Program-made: the position numbers and the translations under genes
Notes under the pieces: model-generated
What the model saw: only the letters and a program-made list of their open reading frames with translations
What the model was told of the DNA's origin: nothing
Databases searched by the model: none
Origin: a phage
Strand: one strand, 5' to 3'
Sequence record: PX670417.1
Length of the DNA: 64,000 bases
Shown here: positions 3,804 through 43,194 of the stretch, piece after piece
Position numbering within the stretch: position 1 is the first letter of the stretch
How the letters are laid out: every line of letters begins with the position of its first letter

Positions 3804-4007
3804 TTATCGGTTATTTTTGATAACTTTTAAAACTGCGCGGTATCCTAAGCAATAAGAATCACCGAAGAGCGACCGACCCATGAATGAATCCTCTTTGATA
3901 TCCTTTGCAGTGACAGTCTTTTCTACGCCGTTAAAAAGAACTATATCGCCAACTTTGATATCTTTGATATGAGTAGTTTCAATGTTTAAACCGTTGATAA
4001 TAGCCAT
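3804..4007 (-). CDS. Hypothetical small protein (67 aa)
   Basis: ORF preceded by class A cassette. Confidence 0.5.
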   Translation of the reverse strand: MAIINGLNIETTHIKDIKVGDIVLFNGVEKTVTAKDIKEDSFMGRSLFGDSYCLGYRAVLKVIKNNR

Positions 4008-4107
4008 TCTTGAATCTCCTAGTTTAAGGACTTTACTTAGTGGGGAGGTTATCCCTCCCGTTGATTAGTAATTTACTTGTTTTAAAAATCAATGTCAACA
4101 AAATTTT
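4008..4107 (-). promoter_or_regulatory. Stem-loop + RBS cassette, class A (hairpin about 4043-4059)
   Basis: Conserved hairpin and RBS. Confidence 0.65.
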
Positions 4108-4512: not shown

Positions 4513-4598
4513 TTTTAAGTTCTCCAATTTAGGATTTAGTGGTAAAGCTCTTTATCTGGGGCTTACTTTATCGAACTATAAGCCCCTTGTAAAGTACT
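4513..4598 (-). promoter_or_regulatory. Stem-loop + RBS cassette, class B2 (GGGGCTTA-13 nt loop-TAAGCCCC, about 4558-4586); about 100 nt identical to 6540-6628
   Basis: Exact duplicate of the cassette at 6540-6628 including the first codons. Confidence 0.7.
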
Positions 4599-4871
4599 TT
4601 ATACTAAATGCAGCTTTTTGCCTTTTACCATGATGTAACTTGTTGCGCTATTGCTATGCACATCTTGATAAATTCTGCGCAAACGGCCTTCGTAGTATAC
4701 TTTCCAACTGGTTGGAATCTTTTTCCCGTACCCTGTAGCAGTTTTTTGGAGTCCTGCAAGTTGCCAATCTAAGATATGTTGTTCGGCTTGTAAATCCTCG
4801 AAGTGCATTACACCGTTCACATAGTGGCGCAAAGTTACATTTAGAGTACGACCGTTGTTAGTAGTATACAT
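4599..4871 (-). CDS. Hypothetical early protein (90 aa)
   Basis: ORF preceded by class A cassette. Confidence 0.55.
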   Translation of the reverse strand: MYTTNNGRTLNVTLRHYVNGVMHFEDLQAEQHILDWQLAGLQKTATGYGKKIPTSWKVYYEGRLRRIYQDVHSNSATSYIMVKGKKLHLV

Positions 4872-4958
4872 TTTCTAATCTCCTAGTTTAAGGACTTTAC
4901 TTAGTGGGGAGGTTATCCCTCCCGTTGATTAGTAATTTACTTGCTTTAAAAACCAAAA
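4872..4958 (-). promoter_or_regulatory. Stem-loop + RBS cassette, class A (hairpin about 4907-4923)
   Basis: Conserved hairpin and RBS. Confidence 0.65.
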
Positions 4959-5291
4959 TCAAGAGGAATTTTTTCGTTTGTTCAGTTCTTGGACAATTAC
5001 AGCGTAATAATCTTTTAAGTCACTGATATTTAAAGCATTTATCAGGGAGTTATAATCATCAACCAACTGAAAATCATCTTTTAAGATATCACTTATCTGA
5101 TAGGTTTTCGCTTTGAATCTGAAGCTCATTTCTAGCCGCTTTATTTGCTCATCACTTAAACGCTCCAGAAAGCTCATTACAAGGCTATTATTGACCTGTT
5201 GCGTGATTGCCTTACTTGCCAGATTGTAGGCGCTGTAAGCCTTATAAAGTGCTATAATGGCGATGATTGCAGTGATGCCCATCATTAGCAT
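4959..5291 (-). CDS. Hypothetical membrane protein (110 aa; N-terminal TM helix)
   Basis: MLMMGITAIIAIIALYKAY hydrophobic segment; overlaps upstream gene by 7 nt. Confidence 0.5.
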   Translation of the reverse strand: MLMMGITAIIAIIALYKAYSAYNLASKAITQQVNNSLVMSFLERLSDEQIKRLEMSFRFKAKTYQISDILKDDFQLVDDYNSLINALNISDLKDYYAVIVQELNKRKNSS

Positions 5292-5581
5292 GGTGTTACC
5301 TCTCTGCGTGATACTTTACCATTTACAGTTATCTCATAAGCTTCTAATAAATCACTTTCAGATTTAACAGGACTTTTAAAAGTATCATCATAAACATTAA
5401 TTTGCAATACAGGCTTTTTATACTCCCTGCAACTATTCCATAAGCAAATTACTACGCGACGGCCTTTTATTTTGCCGTGTAACCATTCCATAACATCATG
5501 ACTATTTCTTGATGTCTCGATAAAATCAATTTTATTGAGTAATTTGCTTAGATTTTCACGCACTTGATTTGATAATTTCAT
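5285..5581 (-). CDS. Hypothetical early protein (98 aa)
   Basis: ORF preceded by class B-like cassette. Confidence 0.5.
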   Translation of the reverse strand: MKLSNQVRENLSKLLNKIDFIETSRNSHDVMEWLHGKIKGRRVVICLWNSCREYKKPVLQINVYDDTFKSPVKSESDLLEAYEITVNGKVSRREVTPC

Positions 5582-5673
5582 TTTTGAATCTCCTAGTTTA
5601 AGGGCTTTATTTGATAAATCTCTTTATCTGGGGCTATCCTACCAGCTTGTTAGCCCCGTGTAAAGAAATCTAT
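5582..5673 (-). promoter_or_regulatory. Stem-loop + RBS cassette, class B variant (GGGGCTA-14 nt loop-TAGCCCC, about 5630-5657)
   Basis: Conserved RBS TAGGAGATTCAAAAATG and related hairpin. Confidence 0.6.
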
Positions 5674-6186
5674 TTAGTTCTTAAAGATATTCATCACTGA
5701 ATCTTTTAATGCTTCCAAGCGTTCTAATACTTCAGATTCTGCGTCTGCGTTGTTCACCTCTTCTTTTAGTCTATCCTCTAAATCATCGCCGTCACGATAG
5801 CACCAATCGAAAGCGTAACCAAGATAAAAACTTTCTAAAACCGTGCTACCGTTTGCATCCACAACTTTCGCGGCAAGGCTATACTCTGAAGCCTCTAAAT
5901 CTCTTTCTAGTTCTTTCTGTAAGCTTGTGTAAGCCTCTTTCGATGGATTCTCACGGCCTTGTTTTGCATAGTCACTTGAAAGCTGCTTAAGGCTGTAATG
6001 CAAAGGGATTGCATATTTAAACTCATTACGCTGACAGTTGGTGTTTTTAATAGTTACACCGCCTTGATGGTCATCTGTAAACTCCCAATTATCCATATTA
6101 TGGCTTGCTTCGTAGCAATTAACAGCCTCATAAATGATGGAAAATTTTTCTTTTACAACTTCAAAGGTAGCGTCTACAGTTTTCAT
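5674..6186 (-). CDS. Hypothetical acidic early protein (170 aa)
   Basis: Asp/Glu-rich ORF preceded by class B cassette. Confidence 0.55.
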   Translation of the reverse strand: MKTVDATFEVVKEKFSIIYEAVNCYEASHNMDNWEFTDDHQGGVTIKNTNCQRNEFKYAIPLHYSLKQLSSDYAKQGRENPSKEAYTSLQKELERDLEASEYSLAAKVVDANGSTVLESFYLGYAFDWCYRDGDDLEDRLKEEVNNADAESEVLERLEALKDSVMNIFKN

Positions 6187-6281
6187 TTTTGAATCTCCTA
6201 GTTTAAGGACTTGATTTAGTGGTAAAGCTCTTTATCTGGGGCTTAAGATATCAACTTTTAAGCCCCTTGTAAAGTACTTTA
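6187..6281 (-). promoter_or_regulatory. Stem-loop + RBS cassette, class B (hairpin about 6238-6266)
   Basis: Conserved hairpin and RBS. Confidence 0.65.
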
Positions 6282-6539
6282 TCAGATTAAATTGCCAGTT
6301 AATGATAAGTGCATTTTATAGCCTTTTTTGGTAAAAACGTTCACTTTACCGAGTGATTTTACACCTTTAAAAAGGTTGTTTGAACTGCGTTTTAAGGTTA
6401 GTTGCTTATCAGCTTTCACGCCCCACCTTACAGCAGTTTGTTTTCCGTTGTCAACCACTTTTCCGCATAACTTTTTAGCCATAACGCGAGCGTCATCACG
6501 AGTCTTTGCAGTAATTACAACGTTTTTGATAATAGCCAT
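6282..6539 (-). CDS. Hypothetical basic early protein (85 aa; start moved to ATG after conserved RBS)
   Basis: Same cassette-derived MENLKMAI artefact as ORF 4108-4527. Confidence 0.5.
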   Translation of the reverse strand: MAIIKNVVITAKTRDDARVMAKKLCGKVVDNGKQTAVRWGVKADKQLTLKRSSNNLFKGVKSLGKVNVFTKKGYKMHLSLTGNLI

Positions 6540-6628
6540 TTTTAAGTTCTCCAATTTAGGATTTAGTGGTAAAGCTCTTTATCTGGGGCTTACTTTATCG
6601 AACTATAAGCCCCTTGTAAAGTACTTTA
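6540..6628 (-). promoter_or_regulatory. Stem-loop + RBS cassette, class B2 (hairpin about 6585-6613); duplicate of 4513-4598
   Basis: About 100 nt identity with the 4.5 kb copy. Confidence 0.7.
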
Positions 6629-7009
6629 TTAGTTAATTTTGAAAATTGTCACATAACCATCGCTCCCGATGATTTGTGATACCCCAGCTTTTTCTACTTG
6701 ATAGCCCATATTTTCAAGATGGTAAACAGCATCATCGTAACCATATGCGCCACCCTGATAACGTCGCTTATCACATTTTATCAGGTTTTTACCGCGTCCA
6801 GCAAGTGCATTCAGTACGGCTTTTTCACTTGATAGTGTACCATCTATCATGGTTGCCGTGTAATGGTTGATTTTATTCCCATTAATATCATACTTAAAAT
6901 TGAATGCGTGAACAATAATCAATTTACCGTTAAATTTTTCATCAAGTGACTTCTCCAGTGCGTTGCGGAAGTTGTCTTTATTGATGAATTTCGGTGCACG
7001 ATAAGCCAT
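6629..7009 (-). CDS. Hypothetical early protein (126 aa)
   Basis: ORF preceded by class B cassette. Confidence 0.55.
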   Translation of the reverse strand: MAYRAPKFINKDNFRNALEKSLDEKFNGKLIIVHAFNFKYDINGNKINHYTATMIDGTLSSEKAVLNALAGRGKNLIKCDKRRYQGGAYGYDDAVYHLENMGYQVEKAGVSQIIGSDGYVTIFKIN

Positions 7010-7097
7010 TTTAGAATCTCCTAGTTTAAGGTAAGTTAGTAAAGCTCTTTATCTGGGGCTTAAGATATCAGCTTTTAAGCCCCTTGTAAAGTACTTT
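7010..7097 (-). promoter_or_regulatory. Stem-loop + RBS cassette, class B (hairpin about 7055-7083)
   Basis: Conserved hairpin and RBS. Confidence 0.65.
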
Positions 7098-7304
7098 TTA
7101 TATATCGTAATAGTAAACCGCTGACTGTTTTATATGTCGCTTTGTATTCTTTGTTAGGTAGCAATTAGAGTTAATTGCCGTTTCTACATAGTTGCAATAA
7201 TCAGCTTCTGATATTCTACGCCATGCGCCGCACACTTGCATATAAAAACGTTTTGCCTTTGTGTTAACGTTGGTTGTAACCATCAATTCGCGACTGTACA
7301 TCAT
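7098..7304 (-). CDS. Hypothetical early protein (68 aa); first gene of the leftward early operon
   Basis: RBS GGAGA 8 nt upstream; lies immediately downstream of the candidate early promoter. Confidence 0.45.
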   Translation of the reverse strand: MMYSRELMVTTNVNTKAKRFYMQVCGAWRRISEADYCNYVETAINSNCYLTKNTKRHIKQSAVYYYDI

Positions 7305-11945: not shown

Positions 11946-13055
11946 TTAGATTTCACGTTTACGTTGAGAGATGAGTTCACCAGCAGTGCCAACGATGACA
12001 TGCAAAGCTTCAGTCTTACCATCCCATGCTTTCAGCACTTTACGTTGATTATCAACGATTGCTGTAACTTCATAACGGGATGAACGCATCTTCATATCGT
12101 TGTAATCAGTCGGAACAGCTACAACATCTCGTGGATGGACACGAACCTTCAGGATTGTATCACCTGAGAAGCAACGAACGTAATCCCAAGCACCAACATG
12201 AAGACCTTGAGAACAAGTTACGTTACGGTTATTATCAACCATCCAACGTGGCATTTCTACAATGTTACCCAAATCATTAGGTACTTTGTAGGTGCGGGAA
12301 TCAACCAGCTTGCCTTCATGAGTAGAGACTTTCTTCCAGCCAATGATGTAGCCTTCTTCATCAATTTCAACATCAAGGTGTGATACGAATCCCCAAAGTT
12401 GTTCTACAGAATCTTTAGATGGGTTTTCCATCAGTTTTTCGAAGAACATTACAAGTCGTTCAAAACCTTTATCACCAGTCTTCATCATGTGGAGAATACG
12501 GTCAACCAGAGTAGAACGCATCTCAACAGCACCGTAGAATAACTTGTCACCTTTGATTGTGATAGCACCCTGAGTGAAGTTTTCGATAGACTTACGAATA
12601 TTCATCAGTTCAAAGGCTTTCTTGAACTCACCTTTCACAACATGAACTACAATATCTTGATAGTTCGGATGAGTAGACTCAACAATTTCAGATTCTGAAC
12701 CGTAAGTCATAATTACAGAGTCACCAGTAATCATGTACTCAATCTTGTCATCTTTCTGCATAGCTTCATGCAGTTTATTTACTGGAGCTTTCTGTACAGA
12801 TTCCTTAACAACCTTTTCAACTGGTTTTCCAGCTTTCTTTTTAACTGATTTAGCAACTTGCTTCAAAGTCTTCGTAGCTGGTTTAGAAGTTGCCTTTTTC
12901 TTACCTTTTAAGGTTGCTTCATGACGCTCTACAGCACGACCAACTGAACGGGTTGAAGTATTGAACTTCTGTGCAATAGCTGTTTTAGTCAGCTTACCTT
13001 CTTTAACCAGTTCGTAGATTTCTGCGTCAATCTGTGCTTTAGTTTTAATAGTCAT
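11946..13055 (-). CDS. rIIB: rIIB-like protein (369 aa)
   Basis: Position immediately downstream of the rIIA-like gene; N-terminal HTH-like segment then Lys-rich linker; assignment by synteny only. Confidence 0.4.
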   Translation of the reverse strand: MTIKTKAQIDAEIYELVKEGKLTKTAIAQKFNTSTRSVGRAVERHEATLKGKKKATSKPATKTLKQVAKSVKKKAGKPVEKVVKESVQKAPVNKLHEAMQKDDKIEYMITGDSVIMTYGSESEIVESTHPNYQDIVVHVVKGEFKKAFELMNIRKSIENFTQGAITIKGDKLFYGAVEMRSTLVDRILHMMKTGDKGFERLVMFFEKLMENPSKDSVEQLWGFVSHLDVEIDEEGYIIGWKKVSTHEGKLVDSRTYKVPNDLGNIVEMPRWMVDNNRNVTCSQGLHVGAWDYVRCFSGDTILKVRVHPRDVVAVPTDYNDMKMRSSRYEVTAIVDNQRKVLKAWDGKTEALHVIVGTAGELISQRKREI

Positions 13056-13106
13056 CTTATTACTCTCTCTTGTTAGTTAATAAATCATTTTGTAAGGCTA
13101 TTCTAA

Positions 13107-13122
13107 GGGGCTTTGAAGCCCC
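13107..13122 (-). promoter_or_regulatory. GGGGCT-TTGA-AGCCCC hairpin between rIIA and rIIB (identical to the hairpin at 17880-17895)
   Basis: Perfect 6-bp GC stem; weak T-run. Confidence 0.5.
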
Positions 13123-13134
13123 TTGTCAAACACT

Positions 13135-15501
13135 TTAATCGTGAATTGTAGTCCCTTCTGGAACACACTTCACATCAAAGCCTAAGAACTTACTCACTTC
13201 GATGGGTGACACTTTATTCCAATCTAAATGAGAAAGCAAGAAGTTTTCTTGTTTTCTTTTTGAAAGATAGTTTGACACCTTAATGACCATACGGTCACCA
13301 GCTTTCTTGATTTTCTTGTACAGCTTTGTATCATTGTCAAGGCATTCTTTCAAAGTTTGCAATCTACTAATAGTGTAAGTGTATGCAAACGGTGCAGCAA
13401 CGTATTGGATTTTACCAAACATTGCCTCAACAGCATCTTCATTACCTTCTAAGAAGATAGTTTTGTTTGTATCCCGTGAATAACAATAACCACGAGAAAT
13501 CTTCCTGTTATTGAACGTAAAGTTTCTGGCAATAATCCAACTGCTTGTAAGGTCTAGGACACCATTCATATAGATACGTGTCATATACCTGTTATGATTA
13601 ATCCAGTGGACATTAGTTAAGCTGTCGTTCAAGAGCTTCTCATCTACTTCAATCCAGTCTTCTGGTATCTTTTTCCAATTTGCTTTTCGGAAAACATAGA
13701 CCGTCTTTCCAATGACATTGGCAACTGACTTAGCTACATCATCTGGAGATGAGCAAAAACATTCACCATCAACAGTATCACCAACTGCCTTAATGTAAAG
13801 TTGAGGCTCTTCAATTGTGTCTAAGTCTTCTGACACCTCTGTGTATGAAGCTACACCTTCTGCTGGAACAGCTTTCCAGAGTTTTACAACACCTCTTACA
13901 GCTTCTTTACGCTGATAATGATGTTCCTTATCAGACATCTTTACAATCTTTAACAAGCTTTTGTCAAGTTTGTGTAGATTGATTAGGTCGTCTAACTCTT
14001 TCTCAGTAGAGAATACAAAGACGATACCATTGTATCTGTGAAACAGACTTGACTCACTGGCATAGTCTCGACATGCACCACGCAAGATTTGATTGCGTCC
14101 TACAGTCTTCTCAGTACCGTTTTTATTGCGACGGTCATTTATAACAAACAAAAACTGTTCAATTTGGCTTTTACGCATTGCGCCAAAGATATTGAACATA
14201 CTTGCCTCTTGAGTGTAGGAAAGTGCTGTTGCACGAATCTTACTTTCTAAAGAGTTGAACTTAACATAAGCAACTGGGTCATAAAGATAATCTACTTTAG
14301 GAATATTGTTTCCGTTCCTGTCAACCTTAATATTACCTTTACCATCACGTTCATAAATGACTGAGCCGTCTTCTGCATAGATAATTCCACGACGAATATT
14401 TAGTAATTCTTCTTCCAGAGAATCAAGCTTAACACCTCCCCACTCTAGCTTTGGACACACAGCATTAAACATCTCTCGTGAGTTCAAACGTAACTCAGCA
14501 TAAGCCTGTGCAGCATCCATGAGTGTAGGTTGACTATTAACTTTCTTGATAACATCCTTTGTAATTGCTTCAGTTATCTTTTTAGTAGCCTCAATGATAA
14601 CATTTTTTGTTGTATCATTCATCTGCAATGCTTCACGAGAAGCTGCAATAGCAACTGAACCAATAGGCATATAGATGTTTACAAGGTCTACGCTCCTACG
14701 GAAAAACTCTGGCAAGACTTTAAAGAAATCATCACCAAGTAGTGCTTCCATGTTAACAGGGTAGGCAATGTTACCCATCACTACATTAAACTCTGTCCTG
14801 TTACCACTAGAACGCCAGCTTTGCTTATGAATCATGGCATCATAAACACCTTCTTCACGGGCAATGACATTCATATCTGCTAATACATCGTCATACTCAA
14901 TGTTACTTTCCGGTTTTACAGCAAAGTATGAGTATACGTGACCAGCCTCTTCAAAGAACTTTGAGATACGATGGTCAGCAACTGCTACACGTACAGCTAA
15001 ACCATTTGGCTCTTTTGTTGGGTTGGTGGTCAGCTTAGTTACTTGAGGAATACCATTCTCAAGATAAACAGAATACTTATTAACAACACCGTCAACATAA
15101 CTGGACACTGTGAATGACTGAGCAATTGCAAATGGGGATTTTGAGCCGATACCCATTGCACCAATGTAGTCATTAGAGTCATTCTTTGTAGAAGCCCCGT
15201 AGTTTAGATACAAACTCATAACTTTATCATGAGTCAATCCAGTTCCAAAATCACGAACTTCAAAGTAAGGCTCAAAACGAGTCGGTAAATGCACATGGAA
15301 CGGGATGTTCTCTTTTCCAGCTTCTTTCTGAGCATCTACTGCGTTACATGACAGTTCACGAATTACTGCTCGCTCTTTAAAGGTATATACACCAGAACTC
15401 AGAAGGCTGAACATTTCAGGTGTCATTGTAATCTGTGCTTGAGATGTCTCTAAAGAAGTTGAACTCTTAATCACTTCTGCGTGGTCGTTTACCATGCGCA
15501 T
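13135..15501 (-). CDS. rIIA: rIIA-like protein with N-terminal GHKL ATPase fold (788 aa)
   Basis: GHKL-like N-box ELSCNAVDA, G1 VRDFGTGL, G2 GAMGIGSKS; size and pairing with downstream gene fit rIIA/rIIB. Confidence 0.55.
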   Translation of the reverse strand: MRMVNDHAEVIKSSTSLETSQAQITMTPEMFSLLSSGVYTFKERAVIRELSCNAVDAQKEAGKENIPFHVHLPTRFEPYFEVRDFGTGLTHDKVMSLYLNYGASTKNDSNDYIGAMGIGSKSPFAIAQSFTVSSYVDGVVNKYSVYLENGIPQVTKLTTNPTKEPNGLAVRVAVADHRISKFFEEAGHVYSYFAVKPESNIEYDDVLADMNVIAREEGVYDAMIHKQSWRSSGNRTEFNVVMGNIAYPVNMEALLGDDFFKVLPEFFRRSVDLVNIYMPIGSVAIAASREALQMNDTTKNVIIEATKKITEAITKDVIKKVNSQPTLMDAAQAYAELRLNSREMFNAVCPKLEWGGVKLDSLEEELLNIRRGIIYAEDGSVIYERDGKGNIKVDRNGNNIPKVDYLYDPVAYVKFNSLESKIRATALSYTQEASMFNIFGAMRKSQIEQFLFVINDRRNKNGTEKTVGRNQILRGACRDYASESSLFHRYNGIVFVFSTEKELDDLINLHKLDKSLLKIVKMSDKEHHYQRKEAVRGVVKLWKAVPAEGVASYTEVSEDLDTIEEPQLYIKAVGDTVDGECFCSSPDDVAKSVANVIGKTVYVFRKANWKKIPEDWIEVDEKLLNDSLTNVHWINHNRYMTRIYMNGVLDLTSSWIIARNFTFNNRKISRGYCYSRDTNKTIFLEGNEDAVEAMFGKIQYVAAPFAYTYTISRLQTLKECLDNDTKLYKKIKKAGDRMVIKVSNYLSKRKQENFLLSHLDWNKVSPIEVSKFLGFDVKCVPEGTTIHD

Positions 15502-15529
15502 AATACTTTCCTCTTAGTTTACTGTTAAA

Positions 15530-15706
15530 TTACTTATTAAACATTTTACCAGAACCGCCACACATAGGGCAACAACCTGCTCTTGTATAGCCTTCTCCAT
15601 TACAGAAGTCACATTTTTTGTGTTCTGCATAGTACTTACAAAGAAGGTAAACAAATACTGCTATACTACCAAGTGACAGTAAAATTTCTATCCAATATGC
15701 TTGCAT
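15530..15706 (-). CDS. Small membrane-anchored protein with two DnaJ-type CxxCxGxG zinc-finger repeats (58 aa; not in ORF track)
   Basis: Hand translation MQAYWIEILLSLGSIAVFVYLLCKYYAEHKKCDFCNGEGYTRAGCCPMCGGSGKMFNK; fills the gap between ORF 15688-16023 and rIIA. Confidence 0.35.
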   Translation of the reverse strand: MQAYWIEILLSLGSIAVFVYLLCKYYAEHKKCDFCNGEGYTRAGCCPMCGGSGKMFNK

Positions 15707-16023
15707 GACTCACCTCTCATATTCTTGTAAAGGATAAAGCTTCTGTCATGAACGATGCTTGTAGATACTGCAAAGTTACTTTCAAGCATCTGTTTGTTTG
15801 GATTGTAGAAGCTTTCTTTAAACTCGTCAAGTGCAAATTGGTGATTGTCTGGAAGACCTTTCACACACACCTTTATTGTAATTGCTGCTGCAACCTTGCC
15901 AGTCAGTTCTTCTTTAGCCGCTACTAAGATTTTGTTGAGGAACTTATGACCATTTTCAGGCTTCTTGATGTTCTCCCAGCGTTCTTCTAAGACAATATTG
16001 ATGTTCATTTCTTTGATTTTCAT
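15688..16023 (-). CDS. Hypothetical protein (111 aa)
   Basis: ORF. Confidence 0.5.
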   Translation of the reverse strand: MKIKEMNINIVLEERWENIKKPENGHKFLNKILVAAKEELTGKVAAAITIKVCVKGLPDNHQFALDEFKESFYNPNKQMLESNFAVSTSIVHDRSFILYKNMRGESCKHIG

Positions 16024-16035
16024 AATCTTCTCCAG

Positions 16036-16062
16036 AAATTAAAAAGGCTCCCGTAGGAGCCT
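16036..16062 (-). terminator. Intrinsic terminator after the NAMPT-like gene (AGGCTCC-CGTA-GGAGCCT + T-run)
   Basis: GC hairpin and T-run on the minus strand. Confidence 0.6.
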
Positions 16063-16076
16063 CTTATCATATACTT

Positions 16077-17876
16077 TTAAAGCTGCTTGTCAATATTGTT
16101 TCGAATATCACCAAGAGTTGTGTAACCGAACTGCTCAGAGTCGCTAAAGACTAAACGTAAAGCACAAGCTGGATGTTCAAGTGCATCTGCAAAGCTCTGG
16201 AATCCATAGCCATCTACAGCTTTCAGCTTATCACCATCCCACATAGGTACTACACCACCAAAAGCAGACTTCTTAACACCACTATCTGTTTTAGGGTCTT
16301 TTGCAAGCATAATCTCTTTACCACCAATGCTTGCAAGAGTTGCTTTGACAGCAAATGCAAAGGTGTCACGAGTCATGTACTGGTAAGTGTAAGAACCTAC
16401 ACCAAACACTACGTTAGAGCTTGCAAAACCCATTTCATACAGACGCTTCAGGATTTCGTTTGCACGTTCCAGCGTGATAGAGTCGCCATAGATAAGGCCA
16501 ATGTGTTCATCTAGTACCTTAAAACCTTTAGAGTTGATAGTCCCTCCAAAGATGTTATACAGGGTCTTAATAGCCCCATCAATCTCTGCTACAGGACGTG
16601 TTACAACGTTTGCAGAGCCAACCATATAAGCATTTTTCAACATCACTGTATCAGCAACTTCAAAGTCTTCTCTGTCAACAACCATCTCGTAGCCTTCTGA
16701 CAGTAGCCATCCAGCAATACCATAACTGATGTTTTCAAGCTTCATGTTCAGAACAGCATTCAACATTGTGTCGCTTGCTTCCAGCTTGCTTAGGTGTTCG
16801 TAATAAGCTTTTTTAGCGCACTCTAAGTGGATTGCTTTATAGCCTGTGACAATATGTACAGGGTCGCCAGAGTCAGGACGAATTACCAGTTTGCCGTCAC
16901 GTTCCATAATCTCTTTACGAAGTGCTGGTAAGATTTCTGATACAGTTCTCCAGAAGTTATAAGTGTCTGAAACAACACTTGCAATACCAGTTGGGTAAGT
17001 TTCTGTTAAGAAACGACGGAAGGTTTGTAACTCACCTTTAAAGCGTCTTTCTTCTTCAATCAACTCATTACCACCTTCCCAAGCAATGTTTGCACACATT
17101 ACAGAGTGTTCAGTGGCTGGTACAGAGCTACCAATATCAGAGATTGGGTAGGACTGTCCGTAGATGCGTTTAGCTGTATATACAGCAGGGAAGCTATCAG
17201 TTCCTTTAAAGCTGGTTAAGTGTCCTACAGCGTTAAATGCGTCATCAGTAAAGCCGGACATACCACGCATAGCAAAGTCATGACACTGATAAGGCAAATG
17301 TAAGTCGTTATCACAAGTAAGGTCAGACCACTTCTTACAGATACGTTTGTAGTGCAATGCAATAGTTGCAATGGTACAAGCCTTCCAAATCTCAGCAGAG
17401 AAAGCATCTTCCAGATACCCAGCTACCCAATGGAAACCTGAAACAGTGTTCTGGAAGACAATCATTGGTACACGCATAGGAACCACTGTTCCTTCTTCTA
17501 CAGCGTATACTTCAACTGGTAGATAACCTAAATCGTGAAGTGCTTCCCAATGTTCTCGACCAATAGCATCTTTACCCAGAACACCGTTCATGACTTCTAA
17601 GATTTCGTCAATTGCTTCTTTTTTGTCACGTTCAAAGAAGGTGGCGTTCCAGTGGTCTATCAAGTAATCTTTAACAAAACGTTGAATACCAAAAGCAACT
17701 ACACCGTCAATTGCTAAAGGGCTGTTAAACCATTTATCACTACGTGGTGTCAGGTTGAACATTAGGTACTCTGTTGCACTAGGATACTGATAAATATGGC
17801 CAGACTTGTAAGCATCCGCGTTTAAACCTGCTGGTACTGCATAAAGTGATTTAGTCATCTTTTTAATCTCTCTCAA
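16077..17876 (-). CDS. Nicotinamide phosphoribosyltransferase (NAMPT/NadV) family protein (599 aa); possibly a Namat-type nicotinamide ADP-ribose transferase
   Basis: Long ORF recognised as NAMPT-family from the translation; adjacent to a Prs-family gene. Confidence 0.75.
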   Translation of the reverse strand: MREIKKMTKSLYAVPAGLNADAYKSGHIYQYPSATEYLMFNLTPRSDKWFNSPLAIDGVVAFGIQRFVKDYLIDHWNATFFERDKKEAIDEILEVMNGVLGKDAIGREHWEALHDLGYLPVEVYAVEEGTVVPMRVPMIVFQNTVSGFHWVAGYLEDAFSAEIWKACTIATIALHYKRICKKWSDLTCDNDLHLPYQCHDFAMRGMSGFTDDAFNAVGHLTSFKGTDSFPAVYTAKRIYGQSYPISDIGSSVPATEHSVMCANIAWEGGNELIEEERRFKGELQTFRRFLTETYPTGIASVVSDTYNFWRTVSEILPALRKEIMERDGKLVIRPDSGDPVHIVTGYKAIHLECAKKAYYEHLSKLEASDTMLNAVLNMKLENISYGIAGWLLSEGYEMVVDREDFEVADTVMLKNAYMVGSANVVTRPVAEIDGAIKTLYNIFGGTINSKGFKVLDEHIGLIYGDSITLERANEILKRLYEMGFASSNVVFGVGSYTYQYMTRDTFAFAVKATLASIGGKEIMLAKDPKTDSGVKKSAFGGVVPMWDGDKLKAVDGYGFQSFADALEHPACALRLVFSDSEQFGYTTLGDIRNNIDKQL

Positions 17877-17879
17877 AAT

Positions 17880-17895
17880 GGGGCTTTGAAGCCCC
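17880..17895 (-). promoter_or_regulatory. GGGGCT-TTGA-AGCCCC hairpin between the Prs-like and NAMPT-like genes
   Basis: Same 16-nt hairpin as at 13107-13122. Confidence 0.5.
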
Positions 17896-17904
17896 TATAA
17901 AGTT

Positions 17905-18801
17905 TCAATCAATGGTAATTACAGTAACTTGGGCATAATGTGTTAAGCCACGGTCTTTAGATTCCCCTAAAGAGTTTGTAGTGTAGATATGGTCAATACC
18001 ATTGTCAAGTAAGTTTTCAACACCTTTAGAGAAAATGCCATGAGTTACATAGAGTTCCACACGTTTTGCACCTGCTTCACGAAGATGTTTAGCTGCTTCT
18101 ATGAATGTTCGACCTCCATCACAAATATCATCAAGAATCATGACAGTTTTATCTGTCAAATCAACAGCATCAAGGATTCGCATACCAGTAATTTCACCAG
18201 TCTTAAGGTTGCGTACTTTAGACATTGTGATGTATGGTTTATCCACCTCTTTAGCAGCCTCTTCAGTCTTCTTAGCTGCACCTGCGTCTGGGGCTACCAA
18301 GAAATCAATGCGTGGGTCACTTGCAAAGTGTACTGCTACATCTTTTTGCTTCATGCTCTGAAAGCACTTAAATAAGTTTTCTGCAACATTACTGTGAGGG
18401 TCAAGAGCACATACTGCATCAAAACCCATTGCATTAACGAGGTTGGCAAAAGCTTTCAGTGCTGCTGAATCGCCTTTGAACATATGGCGGTCATATCGAG
18501 CATTCGGTAAGAACCCGAAAACAACGGTTTTCATCGCTGATTTATATGGAACAAGACTGTCAACGGCATCCTTAGCCAAAGCTAATGCAAACAGTGTATC
18601 TTTATCATATCCCTGCACAGTCAATATAACATTGTCAATCTTACCAGCATTACGCTCAGTAAACTTAACAAAGTCTTCAGAGAAGTTTCCACCAATTTCT
18701 CCAGATGGGAATTGGATTATATTAAATTTTTCTGTGTGGAAGAATTTCTCTTGTGCGGTGACAACGGCTTCAATAATAGTTTTCATAGTTTTCTCTCTCA
18801 A
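17905..18801 (-). CDS. Ribose-phosphate pyrophosphokinase (PRPP synthetase, Prs) family protein (298 aa); possibly an Adps-type ADP-ribose pyrophosphokinase
   Basis: Prs-like motifs, including MILDDICDGGRT resembling the PRPP-binding loop. Confidence 0.75.
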   Translation of the reverse strand: MREKTMKTIIEAVVTAQEKFFHTEKFNIIQFPSGEIGGNFSEDFVKFTERNAGKIDNVILTVQGYDKDTLFALALAKDAVDSLVPYKSAMKTVVFGFLPNARYDRHMFKGDSAALKAFANLVNAMGFDAVCALDPHSNVAENLFKCFQSMKQKDVAVHFASDPRIDFLVAPDAGAAKKTEEAAKEVDKPYITMSKVRNLKTGEITGMRILDAVDLTDKTVMILDDICDGGRTFIEAAKHLREAGAKRVELYVTHGIFSKGVENLLDNGIDHIYTTNSLGESKDRGLTHYAQVTVITID

Positions 18802-19335
18802 TCAAAAGTTACGTTTGTTACTGCCATTGTAAGTTGCCCTATAAACTGTCTCGAACTTCAACAGGAGAGATATTGCCAAATCTGTATAGTTGTTGTCAAG
18901 CACATCTGGCATATTATTTTTGATATATTTCTCTTGCTCTTCATAGGTCATCTTAGGAGTACTTAGGAGGTTATCTCCTTGCTTCTGATTATCAGCTTTA
19001 GTTTGGATAAACCAGTTTGTACAGTGATGCTCACCACCTTTTGTAACAGGCTTGTGGTGACCTAATGTGAAGGCTTGATTACCTGTGTATCTACAAAGCT
19101 TATTGAGCACTGCAATGGTGTTCTTCACAACAAAACATTCATACAGATTATCTATGGTGTAATGTGGGTAATAGCGGAATAGTGCTCTTTCACGAGTGCT
19201 GTCACGATTCCAGAGAATCATGTGATTAGAGTTAGAAGGGTCATATTGGTGGGAGTCAATGAACTCTTGACGTTCTTCAAAGCTGAGTCTTAGAACTGAC
19301 ATTGCAGCCGAACGTTTTAGATTTGACAGATACAT
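18802..19335 (-). CDS. Hypothetical protein (177 aa) abutting the Prs-like gene
   Basis: Its stop is directly adjacent to the Prs-like start codon. Confidence 0.5.
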   Translation of the reverse strand: MYLSNLKRSAAMSVLRLSFEERQEFIDSHQYDPSNSNHMILWNRDSTRERALFRYYPHYTIDNLYECFVVKNTIAVLNKLCRYTGNQAFTLGHHKPVTKGGEHHCTNWFIQTKADNQKQGDNLLSTPKMTYEEQEKYIKNNMPDVLDNNYTDLAISLLLKFETVYRATYNGSNKRNF

Positions 19336-19386
19336 TTTATCTCCAAAATAAAAAGGGAACCTTTACAGTCCCCTTATAGTATCTGT

Positions 19387-20267: not shown

Positions 20268-20715
20268 ACTCTTTTCTCCAGAGGTTTTGGTTATCAGAAC
20301 CACGATATGGTTTAACTGTTGGTTTAGAAGAATCATACTTACCATCAATCACCACGTCAACATATTTCATCACATCTAGGTGAATTTTTTCGTGTAACTG
20401 AAAACCTGTCCATAGCCAGATAGATTTTTCTGGGTAAACAGTTTTAATACGTTTACATATGTTGGTGACCTCTTGAATGTTTCTGTCATCAAGAGGCTCT
20501 CCCCCAAGTATTGACAACCCACTGATGGCATTATCATCCATTAGCTTAATGATGCCGTAAAGGTTTGCATAAGTAAACTCTTTACCAGCATTAAACTTCC
20601 AAGACTCCCTGTTAAAGCAACCTTCACAGTGATGTTTACAGCCAGCTACGAAGAGGCTTACACGAACCCCTTCACCATTAGCTGTGTCAAATGGTCGAAT
20701 CTCCATGTAATTCAT
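20230..20715 (-). CDS. nrdG: Anaerobic ribonucleotide reductase activating protein (radical SAM), NrdG
   Basis: CKHHCEGC (CxxxCxxC) cluster; overall pattern similar to T4 NrdG as recalled. Confidence 0.75.
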   Translation of the reverse strand: MNYMEIRPFDTANGEGVRVSLFVAGCKHHCEGCFNRESWKFNAGKEFTYANLYGIIKLMDDNAISGLSILGGEPLDDRNIQEVTNICKRIKTVYPEKSIWLWTGFQLHEKIHLDVMKYVDVVIDGKYDSSKPTVKPYRGSDNQNLWRKEYGWQGDCQWRAE

Positions 20716-20750
20716 CTAGTTACCTCACCAATACTATTTAATTGTTTTAC

Positions 20751-21146
20751 TCATTCAAACACTACCTGGCAAGGAATCTGTTTAGTAATAAACTCTTCAC
20801 AGTGCTCTTTAATGAAGTTTTGTAATGGCACACAGTCTTGTGCACAAGTCATTAGCATAATGTACTCTGGATTCATAATATTTTCAAGACTGTAGAAGAC
20901 AACATCGTCAGATAATTCATGACCGTCTTCTTCAGACCAAGTTCCAGTGACTACAGCTAATTTGTCAAGCAATTCATTAGGCAATGCTACACCATCTTCT
21001 ACGGAATCACTTAGAACGTTGTCGCTGATGTACAATGTGAAGGTTGTATGGAATGTTGAATACCTTACGTGATTCTTTTCGCAAGAGCCACACTCTGAGG
21101 CGTAATCTTTAATCCACTCTAGCTGTTTTTTGTTCAACTTAATCAT
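20751..21146 (-). CDS. Hypothetical Cys-rich protein (131 aa)
   Basis: ORF. Confidence 0.5.
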   Translation of the reverse strand: MIKLNKKQLEWIKDYASECGSCEKNHVRYSTFHTTFTLYISDNVLSDSVEDGVALPNELLDKLAVVTGTWSEEDGHELSDDVVFYSLENIMNPEYIMLMTCAQDCVPLQNFIKEHCEEFITKQIPCQVVFE

Positions 21147-21358
21147 AATTTCACCTTAGTTGGCAATGCACTGAATGCTATAGCTAACCCTAAAAATGGT
21201 TTGAAGCATGACCATAAATCCATCTGACCATGATATGCGAAACTCCATTGTGGGTCTGAAAAACCCCATACCATAACACTAACTCCAAAGAAGAAGATTG
21301 CTATGTGTAGTATGGGTGCTAATACCCTTAAGAGTGTTGTCATTGTTAATTCCACCAT
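21143..21358 (-). CDS. Small membrane protein (71 aa)
   Basis: Two hydrophobic segments. Confidence 0.4.
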   Translation of the reverse strand: MVELTMTTLLRVLAPILHIAIFFFGVSVMVWGFSDPQWSFAYHGQMDLWSCFKPFLGLAIAFSALPTKVKL

Positions 21359-21732
21359 ATAGTTTTACCATTATCACATGTGTAAAGATACTCTACAGAA
21401 GTTTGTGGGACAAGTATAGTGGTGTTCCCACTAAGTACACTCACAAAATAAGTAACTTCACGATGTTGATGAGTTTTTACACAATTGTTTGCCTCCATCC
21501 ATATCACAGTTTTGTATGAATAGAACACCGCCAAGACACAAAGTGTAATAACCCCAACTATCATGGCAAACTCAGGCAAAAAATCTGACTGTATGATGTC
21601 TCTAAATCTCATTATTCCAAGAATAAATAAGATTATCAGACATACAATCCCACAAACTGCTACATAAAGCCACAAGTCCATGATGCAACTCCAAATAAAA
21701 AGGTGATGTAAGCCTATCAAGACCCACATCAC
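21346..21732 (-). CDS. Membrane protein (128 aa)
   Basis: Multiple hydrophobic helices. Confidence 0.45.
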   Translation of the reverse strand: MMWVLIGLHHLFIWSCIMDLWLYVAVCGIVCLIILFILGIMRFRDIIQSDFLPEFAMIVGVITLCVLAVFYSYKTVIWMEANNCVKTHQHREVTYFVSVLSGNTTILVPQTSVEYLYTCDNGKTIWWN

Positions 21733-21743
21733 CTTGTCAAGTT

Positions 21744-23888
21744 TTACATAGAAACCCTGTCACGAATCTCAGCAATTTTTGCATCATTCATTCGGGATTC
21801 ACCTTTAATCTTAGTCCATCCCAGATACCCGCACACCCTGTTAATCACAGAGATATCATGTGAATGGCAAACCTCACACTCTTCAACATCAGCCTTTGGT
21901 CTGTTACCACAATGCTCACAGATTGCTAAGTCAAAGTTAAGTCCCTGATAGAAACCTTTCAACATCCCTCTTGTAATACAACTTTTAAGTGCTGGTAAGT
22001 TTTCTGGGTTAGCTACTCTGACATACTGGATTCTACCACCTCTACAGATATGGAAGAATGGCTCTTCTAAGTCCTGCTTCTCAAATGGTGAGATGTCTGC
22101 TGCAACATTCATATGGAAACTGTTTGTAAAGTATTCCTTGTCAGAAACACCTTTGATAACGCCAAACATATCTCTGAACTGTTTTAGCTGAGTTCCACAA
22201 AGTGATTCTGCTGGAGTGCCATATACCGCATACAAGAAACCATCTTCATTCTTAAACTCTTCAGTTTTCATGTTAATGTATGCCAGAACATCGTATGCAA
22301 AGCTATAGCTTCCAACTTCATGAAGTCGTTTACCCTCAGCAAGAACAGACAACTCATCCAGAGCAGTAACCCCAAAAGAAGCTGTGAAGGACTTCACGAT
22401 ATCCCAACCAACCTTGTCAGTAGGTTTCTTAGTCCCTTTGTACAGACCACCTTGTGTGAATGCCAGAGGGTTAGAACTTGCTGGCATGTTAGCAATCATT
22501 TCGTAGCGTTTCTTGTGGAAGCTGCGAATCATCTCTAGGTACTTATCAAGCTCTTTCCAGAAATCTAAACCATTCTCTTTAGAATACTGGTAAATCATTG
22601 GTAAGTTCAAAGATACAGCACCAATGTTAGCACGACCAACATAGAACTCTTCCCCATCCTCATTAAGATATGGAGATAAGAAGGCTCTGCAACCCATCGG
22701 TGAAATTACCTTGCCAGAACGCTCAAAAGCTTCTGCTACAGCACCATGACCAGAGACGCTTAAGAAATCTGGATACATTGCTTTAGAGCAACACTCAATA
22801 GCTTTACTGTACAGTTGACCTTGACAGATATTCTCATCGTGTCTCTTCTGGTCATGAATATAAACCAGTTTAGGGAATACAACAGGCTTCTTGCTCTTAC
22901 CTTGTCCATTCATGCGAACATCAAGAATAGTGTTTGCAATCATGTATTGTAGTCGGTTGTCTTCATTAGACATATCTGAGTCAAGTAAACCAAATGTTAA
23001 AGTTGTGAATGCGAAATCACCACGGCTACAAGGTACAGTATTTAGCTTCATCTCTAGTGACTGGAAGCCTTGAGTTAATTCAATCTGTAGCTGCTCCATG
23101 ACATAGTTATGGTAATGTTCTTTAGGAATACCGTAAGATGCTGCTTTCTCAGCATGATAGCGTAGAGACTTCTTAGCATATGGTACAAGCACCTTATCAA
23201 TCTCTGCTAAAGTAAAACCACCAAATTGCTGTGCAGTTGCTGAAAGAACTACATCACCGATAACCTGTAAGGCTGACAGCACAGACTTTGGTTCACAGTA
23301 TTCGATGCCAGACATTTCAAAGCCACCTTTCAGTACTTTACCAATGTCAAACAGGCAACAGTTAATACCACCAAAAATTAGGTCTCTTAAATCATGGATA
23401 TAGATAAACCCTTTTTCAATGGCTTCAAGTTCCTCTGGTGTTAAATGGTACTGTTTAAAGATTTCTTTAGTCAGATAACCACGAATAATTGAACCTTTTG
23501 TAGAAATTAAACTGCTGTCAAAGTTAGCATTTTCACGGTCACCTAAGAAGAGTGTGTCTCTGGTCTTTTGGTAAAGCTCATCCCAATTTTGAGCAACCTC
23601 TTTACGGTAATTTCTATATGTTGAGTAAGACTCATAAATCTCGTGATTTACTTCTGCCAAAGCACCCTCAACAATGCTGTGAATATCGTTTACTGAGATG
23701 AGCAAATTATTCTGCTTAGTGGACTTTACCAGAATCCTCATAAATGCTGATTCAAGAGCTTGGGTAACATCTGGTGGCAGTTCTTTATATCCAACCCTGT
23801 TAGCTGACTTAGTTACTGCTGCTAAAACTTTTTTGATATCCGGTTCTTCAAGTGAGCCATTCTTTTTAATAATTTGTACTTTGTTCAT
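21744..23888 (-). CDS. nrdD: Anaerobic ribonucleoside-triphosphate reductase (class III), NrdD
   Basis: C-terminal glycyl-radical motif RVCGY and zinc ribbon CEHCG...CEVC. Confidence 0.85.
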   Translation of the reverse strand: MNKVQIIKKNGSLEEPDIKKVLAAVTKSANRVGYKELPPDVTQALESAFMRILVKSTKQNNLLISVNDIHSIVEGALAEVNHEIYESYSTYRNYRKEVAQNWDELYQKTRDTLFLGDRENANFDSSLISTKGSIIRGYLTKEIFKQYHLTPEELEAIEKGFIYIHDLRDLIFGGINCCLFDIGKVLKGGFEMSGIEYCEPKSVLSALQVIGDVVLSATAQQFGGFTLAEIDKVLVPYAKKSLRYHAEKAASYGIPKEHYHNYVMEQLQIELTQGFQSLEMKLNTVPCSRGDFAFTTLTFGLLDSDMSNEDNRLQYMIANTILDVRMNGQGKSKKPVVFPKLVYIHDQKRHDENICQGQLYSKAIECCSKAMYPDFLSVSGHGAVAEAFERSGKVISPMGCRAFLSPYLNEDGEEFYVGRANIGAVSLNLPMIYQYSKENGLDFWKELDKYLEMIRSFHKKRYEMIANMPASSNPLAFTQGGLYKGTKKPTDKVGWDIVKSFTASFGVTALDELSVLAEGKRLHEVGSYSFAYDVLAYINMKTEEFKNEDGFLYAVYGTPAESLCGTQLKQFRDMFGVIKGVSDKEYFTNSFHMNVAADISPFEKQDLEEPFFHICRGGRIQYVRVANPENLPALKSCITRGMLKGFYQGLNFDLAICEHCGNRPKADVEECEVCHSHDISVINRVCGYLGWTKIKGESRMNDAKIAEIRDRVSM

Positions 23889-42239: not shown

Positions 42240-43194
<955 letters not shown>

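Follow-up and report, generated by a model that had tools for sequence, protein, structure and literature searches.

On the minus strand of a 64-kb phage sequence (record PX670417.1; the whole stretch analyzed, 64,000 nucleotides, is called the window in the following), the list of open reading frames (ORFs) contains a Prs-family and a NAMPT-family gene, which are adjacent and co-oriented. This arrangement raises the question whether the two enzymes supply PRPP for NMN synthesis or rebuild NAD+ directly through NARP1, a pathway whose two enzymes carry out two reactions not described before and which allows about 4% of sequenced phages to reverse immunity by NAD+ depletion. NARP1 (Adps plus Namat) was discovered and knocked out in phage Bas63 (JohannRWettstein) as gp79-gp80 (Osterman et al., bioRxiv 10.1101/2024.02.11.579819), and the window is from a Felixounavirus genome, the same genus as Bas63. 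We conclude that the pair is very probably the core two-gene NARP1 operon of a Felixounavirus and rebuilds NAD+ directly. A preliminary description of the locus had favored a NARP1-type module over PRPP supply for NMN, a view that is upheld by the orthology with Bas63, the clamp signatures, and the absence of an NMN adenylyltransferase (NMNAT).

According to the proposed mechanism, a SIR2-HerA, type I Thoeris, DSR or SEFIR defence would split NAD+ into ADP-ribose (ADPR) plus nicotinamide. With ATP, Adps would then pyrophosphorylate ADP-ribose at its free ribose, yielding ADPR-PP, and Namat would exchange the pyrophosphate for nicotinamide and thereby regenerate NAD+ directly. Such a route would bypass the NMN intermediate, NMN adenylyltransferase, and the host salvage enzymes. 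For the proteins of this lineage, we infer the exact enzymatic steps from the homologs of phage SPβL1, on which the in vitro chemistry was done; from the lineage itself, Bas63 Adps and Namat “did not purify well”.

The gene pair and its surroundings

Two adjacent, co-oriented genes of the NAMPT and Prs families had been described, and both the ORFs (Table 1) and profile matches confirm them. In profile searches, the NAMPT-like protein matched PHROG 448 (E = 6e-202) and NCBIfam PRK09198 (E = 1e-139), and the Prs-like protein matched PHROG 619 (E = 4e-98) and TIGR01251 (E = 1e-38); as judged by these profiles, the family assignment of both proteins is far beyond chance. The previously given 599 and 298 aa hold for the maximal ORFs, which are counted from upstream TTG codons, but not for the genes. 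Each gene has an ATG a few codons downstream of the TTG, the same TTGAGAGAGA purine-rich stretch precedes both ATGs, and the Bas63 annotation places the starts of adps and namat at those same ATGs. Therefore, we assign 293 aa to Adps and 593 aa to Namat. A gap of 46 nt separates adps from namat, which is the next gene downstream.

Table 1 Features of the adps-namat locus, listed in the direction of transcription (positions are those of the window)
Feature	Position	Strand	Remarks
Terminator-like hairpin, 9-bp stem then T-run	19353..19375	-	-12.3 kcal/mol, z -2.3
177-aa ORF, homolog of Bas63 gp77	18802..19335	-	96% identical to bas63_0077; PHROG 3500
adps (ADP-ribose pyrophosphate synthetase, Prs-family paralog)	17905..18786	-	293 aa; ATG 18786; TGA 17905-17907
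Adps catalytic lysine K190	18217..18219	-	= SPβL1 Adps K162 / B. subtilis Prs K197; codon verified
Adps loop DDICDGGRT	18106..18132	-	position of Prs ribose-5-phosphate-binding loop (E. coli DDMIDTGGT); alignment; coordinates verified
Intercistronic hairpin GGGGCU-UCAA-AGCCCC then AUUUUG	17880..17895	-	-11.5 kcal/mol, z -2.4; between adps and namat
namat (nicotinamide ADP-ribose transferase, NAMPT-family paralog)	16077..17858	-	593 aa; ATG 17858; TAA 16077-16079
Namat selectivity-clamp loop (SCL) S40-D41-K42-W43	17730..17741	-	rule PMC12774641
Namat H251, aligned with phosphorylated catalytic histidine of Nampt	17106..17108	-	invariant column
86-residue insertion in Namat, aa 342-427	16578..16835	-	between RPDSGDP strand and next helix
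Namat selectivity-clamp helix (SCH) motif GSYTYQYMTRD, G488-D498	16365..16397	-	motif definition PMC12774641
Strong terminator-like hairpin, 10-bp stem, UACG loop, T-run	16042..16065	-	-16.6 kcal/mol, z -3.4

The hairpins that had been noticed to bracket the pair are real (z -2.3 to -3.4), but they number three rather than two, and one of them lies between the genes. The first sits upstream of the 177-aa ORF that adjoins adps; it closes the preceding gene and delimits, on the upstream side, the transcription unit with the pair. At the equivalent site of phage AYO145A, upstream of its gp77 homolog, a rho-independent terminator is annotated. The intercistronic hairpin may be a partial terminator, an attenuator, or an RNA-stability element, and a rho-independent terminator is annotated between the two genes also in AYO145A, a curated relative. 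The third hairpin, which starts 12 nt past the Namat stop, is the downstream end of the transcription unit; in AYO145A, an annotated promoter overlaps the Namat 3′ end. A plus-strand ‘terminator’ at 18692-18715 is on the wrong strand and within the coding sequence of Adps, and for this reason it was not accepted as functional.

The stop of the 177-aa ORF abuts the Adps initiation region with no terminator between them, and the ORF is probably co-transcribed with adps. It is a neighbor outside the NARP1 components, and gp77 has been reported as a counter to the Ec67 retron. The published GIY-YIG label of gp77 was not reproduced with Pfam, and PHROGs gave a weak HNH-endonuclease match for the homolog instead.

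No NMNAT or Nudix-like ORF had been seen in the window, and tblastn and six-frame motif scans agree with this. With E. coli NadR and NadD as queries, neither the window nor the complete 87.1-kb Bas63 genome gave a match below E 0.1, and the (H/T)xGH NMNAT motif was absent from all six-frame ORFs of both sequences, with NadR and NadD as positive controls. The Nudix box was likewise absent from these ORFs, as scanned with a pattern without positive control. A weak NadD match at 37891-38091 (E 0.15) was dismissed, as it falls in the DNA polymerase gene. The window covers 64 kb and the genome has roughly 87 kb, so that for the other ~23 kb the absence of an NMNAT rests on Bas63 as a proxy; with the remainder covered in this way through the complete Bas63 genome, the genome-wide search that had been suggested as a check found no NMNAT.

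For NARP1-AP, a Macro-domain protein is expected no more than two genes away from the operon. Macro-domain profiles (PF14519, PF01661, PF20016; Adpp) had no match in the adjacent ORFs, three upstream and two downstream, even at E ≤ 1, using hmmscan, which is less sensitive than the HHpred of the NARP1-AP paper. No ORF for a RyR-domain glycosidase (RyDEP) lies between or beside the pair, and no RyR Pfam match was obtained in the flanking ORFs. By its gene content, the locus represents the core two-gene form of NARP1, without a Macro-domain phosphatase or RyR-domain glycosidase.

Signatures of Adps and Namat

Adps matched the Pfam domains PF14572 (37.3 bits vs a cut-off of 27) and PF00156, and a profile scan did not detect PF13793, the N-terminal Pribosyltran_N domain, in Adps or its close relatives. 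The generic TIGR01251 was the only Prs cut-off that the protein passed (132.6 vs 113), and it remained below every NCBIfam Prs equivalog cut-off (best 110 vs 296). Adps is 95% identical (279/293) to Bas63 gp79 and 99.7% identical to a SapYZU01 protein, which is an entry among the Adps homologs in the supplement of the original NARP1 paper. Its bit score and identity were 93 and about 33% versus SPβL1 Adps, compared with 62 and 27% for E. coli Prs (b1207). K190 is invariant in the Adps/Prs alignment and pairs with K162 of SPβL1 Adps, whose K162A mutant is inactive. In the 5-phosphate loop, the canonical Thr is replaced across the whole Adps clade (the equivalent loop of SPβL1 Adps is DDLSSFGGT), and the altered loop might give room to an ADP-linked 5′-phosphate. 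In the alignment, Adps also lacks the N- and C-terminal helices of Prs. A Namat homolog occurs within 10 genes in 97% of the Adps clade, and here it is the adjoining gene. On the evidence of its sequence, the protein belongs to the phage Adps clade and not to canonical Prs. No solved Adps structure was found, and the structural matches were only to canonical Prs (E about 1e-17).

Namat is 99% identical (585/593) to Bas63 gp80. All core residues (D15, Y17, F195, R198, D221, H251, R327, D329) are invariant in the alignment and their codons were verified; the roles of the residues of the Nampt-like core (D13, Y15, F189, R192, D215, the catalytic His, R306, D308) have been described (PMC12774641). 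Judging from its motifs, the published “selectivity clamp” for ADPR-PP, which consists of SCH and SCL, is present in Namat. In the SCH, Y490 and Y494 are aromatic, and Φ3 is Met, where Asn or Val is usual. The rule for the SCL is that its third residue is Arg, Lys or Tyr and provides or precedes the adenine-stacking residue (PMC12774641). The SCL of the window Namat is identical to that of Bas63 Namat, with Lys third and Trp next as the adenine-stacking residue, and Bas63 Namat was modelled with the fourth SCL residue stacking (PMC12774641).

A comparison of profiles and structures had been proposed to distinguish Adps/Namat from canonical Prs/NadV; Adps fails the Prs equivalog cut-offs as described above, and Namat was found nearest to the SPβL1 Namat crystals. 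With an AF2 model of Namat (pLDDT 93) as query, Foldseek ranked 9w5x and 9w5w, the SPβL1 Namat crystals, first (E 4e-53), followed at lower ranks by HdNadV (4e-47) and human NAMPT (2e-39). The TM score of the model on the Namat crystal structures as target was 0.95, and the phmmer ranking of PDB matches had the same order as Foldseek. The sequence identity to SPβL1 Namat is 37-39%, and SPβL1 Namat lacks roughly 20 aa that are inserted behind the catalytic His in the window Namat. As far as the model is concerned, the structure is nearer to Namat than to Nampt/NadV.

Orthology with Bas63 and alternative explanations

The window is collinear with Bas63, sharing the gene order with nrdG upstream and rIIA/rIIB downstream, at a genome identity of about 93-94% overall. 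The protein lengths and clamp motifs of the pair are the same in both phages, which differ by 14 (Adps) and 8 (Namat) amino-acid substitutions. The small flanking ORFs bas63_0078 and bas63_0081 are present in Bas63 but not in the window, so that the gp77 homolog directly abuts adps. The best nucleotide matches to the window were about 93% across 25 kb, with HK3 reaching 98% across the operon and no close record overall. The locus is already known: it copies the founding Bas63 NARP1 operon, the type example, almost exactly, and is not a new candidate. Near-identical SapYZU01 and AYO145A proteins were already included in the tables of the original paper as Adps homologs and ‘Adps-associated’ Namat homologs. 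Being near-identical to the founding example and having close relatives in these tables, the locus adds nothing to the discovery of NARP1.

Knockout plaquing on hosts with NAD+-depleting defences, which had been suggested as a check, has a published phenotype for the near-identical Bas63 in two independent studies. Deletion of 79-80 reduced plating on SIR2-HerA about 20-fold, NAD+ was restored by wild-type Bas63 only and not by the deletion mutant, and ADPR-PP (m/z 720.010) was seen only when wild-type phage infected cells with the defence (bioRxiv 10.1101/2024.02.11.579819). In an independent screen, single g79 or g80 knockouts lost 10^4-10^6 of plating efficiency on Sir2-HerA and were complemented.

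Pfam, PHROG, NCBIfam, and every GenBank record label the two proteins ribose-phosphate pyrophosphokinase and nicotinamide/nicotinate phosphoribosyltransferase, and these labels favor canonical salvage, in which the Prs-like protein would convert ribose-5-phosphate to PRPP, the NAMPT-like protein would convert PRPP and nicotinamide to NMN, and host NadR or PncC/NadD would finally yield NAD+. However, the effect of Bas63 on SIR2-HerA persists even in a pncC nadR double-deletion host (bioRxiv 10.1101/2024.02.11.579819). Moreover, no product of SPβL1 Adps could be measured in the canonical Prs test, but with ADPR and ATP the enzyme formed ADPR-PP, and SPβL1 Namat favors ADPR-PP over PRPP and yields only NAD+ when both donors are present. 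Together with the failed equivalog cut-offs, the altered 5-phosphate loop, and the clamp motifs in the window, these data make salvage a very improbable function of the pair. The location of the genes inside a nucleotide-metabolism block (nrdA/B/D/G), with thymidylate synthase and DNA ligase genes neighboring, would fit a role in feeding PRPP or NAD+ to phage DNA synthesis rather than in counter-defence. Yet defence-free control hosts served to propagate and titre the deletion mutants, whose plating defect was determined relative to these hosts, and ADPR-PP appeared only with a defence system present, so we give this explanation hardly any credence.

Namat could also serve two purposes, with NARP1 as the main one and PRPP-dependent NMN synthesis via host PRPP and NadR as an addition, for example against defences that leave no usable ADPR. 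SPβL1 Namat indeed makes NMN from PRPP in vitro, an activity kept in clamp mutants. The Bas63 genes g79 and g80 act against the Ec86 retron and hhe as well, neither of which is a classical NAD+-to-ADPR depleter, and on Ec86 the knockouts of g79 and g80 are unequal in strength (about 10-fold vs about 10^3-fold). However, NARP1 phages make no excess NAD+ in defence-free cells, and the aRES defence, which leaves ADPR-1''-phosphate, defeats NARP1, whereas the PRPP-based NARP2 succeeds; hence, the PRPP route of Namat is argued to be insufficient in vivo, and a dual use of this kind seems improbable.

As the core form of NARP1, the operon should enable this phage to resist SIR2-HerA, Thoeris I, and DSR-type defences. 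Sensitivity to an aRES-type defence is predicted because the Adpp phosphatase is missing, and cADPR signals would presumably not be converted by this phage, as the RyR-domain glycosidase was not found. The labels ‘ribose-phosphate pyrophosphokinase’ and ‘nicotinamide phosphoribosyltransferase’ are misleading as to function in >250 Felixounavirus records.

Related systems and the Namat insertion

The pair of the Bacillus phage SPβL1 (PDB 9w5w, 9w5x; PMC12774641) has the same operon order, Adps catalytic lysine, and Namat core as the window. Its SCH, GSFTYQYNTRD, is of the same motif type as GSYTYQYMTRD in the window; in the SCL, SPβL1 uses Arg40 directly, whereas the window has Lys42 plus Trp43, and the 5-phosphate loop of Adps reads SSFGGT in SPβL1 and CDGGRT in the window. 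Features that count against a NARP1 reading are the distance of the SPβL1 enzymes (about 33% and 37-39% identity), the lack of the 86-residue insertion in SPβL1 Namat, and Met at Φ3 of the SCH; by analogy with SPβL1 Namat in vitro, an NMN-from-PRPP side activity would also count against it.

Like the window, NARP2 of Vibrio phage KVP40 (NadV plus the bifunctional Nmnat NatV) uses a NAMPT-family enzyme for rescue from NAD+ depletion, but it starts from PRPP and needs Nmnat, whereas in the window no Nmnat was found, a Prs-family Adps is adjacent, and Namat has clamp motifs. NARP1-AP (Adps-Adpp-Namat, Vibrio phage Gary) and the RyDEP-extended NARP1 of phage DyoEdafos share the Adps/Namat core with the window, which is without Adpp and the RyR-domain glycosidase, respectively. 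Canonical E. coli Prs and Nampt/NadV have the same folds and catalytic residues as the window pair; in contrast to these enzymes, the 5-phosphate loop of the window Adps is altered and the window Namat has the adenine clamp.

The 86-residue insertion occurs neither in the crystallized SPβL1 Namat nor in Nampts; it is conserved in Ounavirinae-type phages and also present in Bas63 Namat. In the model, it forms an autonomous small α/β subdomain that is confidently folded by itself. No structural or sequence relatives of the insertion were detected elsewhere, and we found no discussion of it in the NARP1 papers considered. An origin as an intein or homing-endonuclease remnant was rejected, as such motifs are lacking and the α/β fold is compact; it is further weakened by the variable length of the site (18-101 aa across the family). 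Whether the insertion gives the Namat of this lineage a property without counterpart in the SPβL1 enzyme is doubtful. Possible roles are docking of Adps for substrate channelling, regulation, and an altered donor range; the Adps and Namat of SPβL1 show no mutual binding. If true, an altered donor range of Namat could explain why g80 of Bas63 counters the Ec86 retron and hhe.

Orthology of the gene pair to the Bas63 NARP1 operon

The window is a genome of a Felixounavirus (Felix O1-like myovirus), and it is collinear with bases 7.3–71.6 kb of the Felixounavirus Bas63 (JohannRWettstein, MZ501086) at ~93–94% identity. NARP1, in which Adps forms ADPR-pyrophosphate (ADPR-PP) from ADPR and ATP and Namat joins ADPR-PP with nicotinamide to yield NAD+, was discovered in Bas63, whose genes 79–80 were annotated as Prs and Nampt (10.1101/2024.02.11.579819). 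The Adps of the window is identical to bas63_0079 at 279/293 positions (95%) and the Namat to bas63_0080 at 585/593 (99%), both without gaps, and the pair is located between nrdG and rIIA/rIIB as in Bas63. Near-identical proteins of SapYZU01 (99.7% identity for Adps) and AYO145A are listed in the supplementary tables of the same study as Adps homologs and “Adps-associated” Namat homologs (10.1101/2024.02.11.579819). Of the 254 phage records that the pair matched, almost all belong to Felixounaviruses of Escherichia, Salmonella or Shigella, and HK3 matched best (98%). The proposal of a NARP1-type module thus receives support, and the locus, as an orthologous copy of the operon in which NARP1 was discovered, is already known.

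The two adjacent minus-strand ORFs (17905–18801 and 16077–17876) were found exactly where the preliminary description had placed them. Its lengths of 298 and 599 aa apply to ORFs read from an upstream TTG, but not to the genes. In both, an ATG lies 5–6 codons 3′ of the TTG and is preceded by the same purine-rich stretch, TTGAGAGAGA; as these ATGs are also the annotated starts in Bas63, the closest characterised relative, we adopted the shorter genes (see table). Judged from profile matches, the family membership of both proteins is unambiguous (Adps: Pfam Pribosyl_synth and Pribosyltran, PHROG 619 with E 4e-98, TIGR01251; Namat: Pfam NAPRTase and NAMPT_N, PHROG 448 with E 6e-202, NCBIfam PRK09198 with E 1e-139).

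Features of the NARP1 locus and of other regions of the window
Feature	Position	Strand	Remarks
Counter-defence cluster	11946–19375	−	Genes whose Bas63 counterparts have published counter-defence phenotypes
rIIB	11946–13055	−	Bas63 counterpart counters qatABCD, with rIIA
rIIA	13135–15501	−	Bas63 counterpart counters qatABCD, with rIIB
Hairpin	16065–16042	−	Strong; directly 3′ of namat
adps/namat	16077–18786	−	Bas63 counterparts counter Sir2-HerA, Ec86 retron, hhe
namat	16077–17858	−	593 aa, ATG start, coordinates verified
Namat insertion subdomain	16578–16835	−	aa 342–427 (86 aa), after RPDSGDP strand
Hairpin	17895–17880	−	Between adps and namat
adps	17905–18786	−	293 aa, ATG start, coordinates verified
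Adps N-terminal third	18502–18786	−	aa 1–95, mosaic within Felixounavirus
177-aa ORF (gp77 homolog)	18802–19335	−	Adjoins front of adps, no terminator between; 96% identical to Bas63 gp77, which is reported to counter Ec67 retron
Hairpin	19375–19353	−	5′ of the 177-aa ORF
Direct repeats	1279–7100		Two intergenic families of ~100–117 nt (6 and 5 copies) in a region of small early genes
Segment missing from Bas63	42488–43787	+	1.3 kb; two ORFs (PHROG 4652 and 5926), no assigned function
Divergent segment	49271–50215		Patchy or lower-identity alignment (77%, one piece) to Bas63 ~21.1–21.8 kb

Function of the pair and alternative readings

The function of the Bas63 pair has been addressed in vivo. 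Without genes 79–80, plating of Bas63 on SIR2-HerA decreased about 20-fold; NAD+ restoration was seen only with the wild-type phage, and ADPR-PP (m/z 720.010), a new metabolite, only with the wild type in the presence of the defence system (10.1101/2024.02.11.579819). In an independent genome-wide knockout study, deleting g79 or g80 singly lowered plating on Sir2-HerA by 10^4–10^6; this defect was complemented in trans, and both genes also acted against the Ec86 retron and hhe. As the Bas63 protein “did not purify well”, in vitro assays used homologs from the Bacillus phage SPβL1. SPβL1 Adps converted ADPR and ATP to ADPR-PP, from which SPβL1 Namat formed NAD+ with nicotinamide, and the pathway was lost with Adps K162A and with Namat R306G. 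We therefore infer the reaction steps in the lineage of the window from orthology to Bas63, Bas63 in vivo metabolomics, and sequence and structure signatures.

Profile or structure comparisons against Adps/Namat and Prs/NadV, which the preliminary description had proposed, placed both proteins on the NARP1 side. Adps exceeds the cut-off of the generic ribP_PPkin subfamily model alone and stays below those of all Prs equivalogs (in one case, 110 bits versus 296), and it resembles SPβL1 Adps (93 bits, 33% identity) more than host Prs (62 bits, 27% identity). The PDB contains no solved Adps structure, and the best matches were canonical Prs (about E 1e-17). K190 aligns with the essential K162 of SPβL1. 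In an alignment of 30 sequences, the Adps clade retains the Prs catalytic residues, lacks the Prs terminal helices, and has another residue in place of the canonical Thr in the loop that binds ribose-5-phosphate, so that DTGGT of Prs reads DGGRT in the window, DAGGT in bacterial homologs and SFGGT in SPβL1. In our own interpretation, the altered loop may provide space for the ADP-linked phosphate.

Namat carries both parts of the “selectivity clamp” defined in a 2026 structural paper (PMC12774641), the helix motif G488-S-Y-T-Y-Q-Y-M-T-R-D498 and the loop S40-D41-K42-W43, which has the Lys-then-stacking-residue layout described there for Bas63 Namat. Its catalytic core (D15, Y17, F195, R198, D221, H251, R327, D329) was invariant among 32 aligned sequences. 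The AlphaFold2 model (pLDDT 93, pTM 0.91) best matched the Namat crystals 9w5x and 9w5w (E 4e-53, TM 0.95 on target); bacterial NadV and human NAMPT ranked lower, and sequence searches gave the same order.

The clamp motifs and the low Prs equivalog scores contradict the database reading, according to which a PRPP synthetase and a Nampt supply host NadR/PncC. In addition, Bas63 retains the effect in a host deleted for both pncC and nadR (10.1101/2024.02.11.579819), and SPβL1 Adps yielded no measurable product when tested under the canonical Prs condition. A pure role in nucleotide metabolism is likewise contradicted, as the phenotype of the pair is conditional. Namat might additionally make NMN from host PRPP; SPβL1 Namat can make NMN from PRPP in vitro, but formed NAD+ alone when both donors were offered. 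This dual use is disfavoured, because NARP1 phages produce no excess NAD+ when no defence system is present, and because aRES defeats NARP1 whereas the PRPP-based NARP2 succeeds. The absence of NMNAT and Nudix genes noted earlier was confirmed. Searched by tblastn with NadR and NadD of E. coli, neither the window nor a complete same-genus genome gave a match below E 0.1, and motif scans, with NadR and NadD as positive controls for HxGH, found neither the NMNAT HxGH box nor a Nudix box.

According to recent preprints, some NARP1 operons are extended by Adpp, a Macro-domain ADPR-1′′-phosphate phosphatase that defeats aRES, or by RyDEP, a RyR-domain glycosidase that converts cADPR signals. Neither was found in or beside the operon, which is the core two-gene form, and the phage would thus be expected to be sensitive to aRES.

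A lineage-restricted insertion in Namat

Compared with the crystallised SPβL1 enzyme and Nampts, Namat has ~20 extra residues after the catalytic His (aa ~258–276) and an 86-aa insertion, which is confidently predicted, within the full protein as well as on its own (pLDDT 90, pTM 0.80), to form a small α/β subdomain. The length at this site varies from 18 to 101 aa across the family. The long form (about 590–610 aa) is kept in Ounavirinae-type phages down to ~46% identity, and relatives of the subdomain, by structure or by sequence, were identified only among such long-form proteins. Bas63 Namat was aligned and modelled in the structural paper without mention of the insertion (PMC12774641). 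The insertion is lineage-restricted, and it is the one feature of the locus beyond the literature examined.

Variation at the locus and elsewhere

The pair had been described as bracketed by hairpins. The flanking hairpins were recovered, but the unit carries three in all on its coding strand, one of them intercistronic. In the curated relative AYO145A, the counterparts of the intercistronic and the 5′-most hairpin are annotated as rho-independent terminators, and a promoter overlaps the Namat 3′ end. Bas63 gp77 was labelled GIY-YIG in a knockout screen; Pfam detected no such domain in the 177-aa ORF, which has a weak HNH-endonuclease match in PHROGs and an HNH-like stretch, GHHKPVTKGGEHHCTNW.

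The small ORFs flanking the Bas63 pair, bas63_0081 and bas63_0078 (the latter between gp77 and adps), are missing at window junctions 16021–16024 and 18823–18829, respectively. The NARP1 locus is an indel hotspot. Other relatives, such as BPS15Q2, VpaE1 and SapYZU01, carry an HNH homing endonuclease inserted at the NARP1 region. Many relatives are only 63–74% identical over the Adps N-terminal third, but 82–89% over its remainder and ~98% in Namat; the window and Bas63 belong to one allele group. This mosaic pattern suggests recombination inside the operon.

Two Bas63 homing endonuclease genes are absent from the window (junctions ~22691 and ~39790); one splits Bas63 nrdD, which appears uninterrupted in the window. 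The segment of Bas63 aligned to 49271–50215 falls inside bas63_0027 (20694–23048), an annotated tail fiber protein, consistent with host-range divergence. In the one D2 repeat copy inspected, a GC-rich hairpin precedes an AGGAG ribosome-binding site with its start codon, and the direct repeats are probably repeated terminator/initiation cassettes. Chromosomes of the Enterobacteriaceae Klebsiella, Cronobacter, Phytobacter and Kosakonia (homologs P0068–P0120 and P0201–P0239) encode 496-aa Namat-like proteins with the clamp GS[YF]TYQYNTRD, and the latter three genera also encode Adps-like proteins of ~285 aa whose loop reads DAGGT, which fits the reported bacterial NARP1 homologs.
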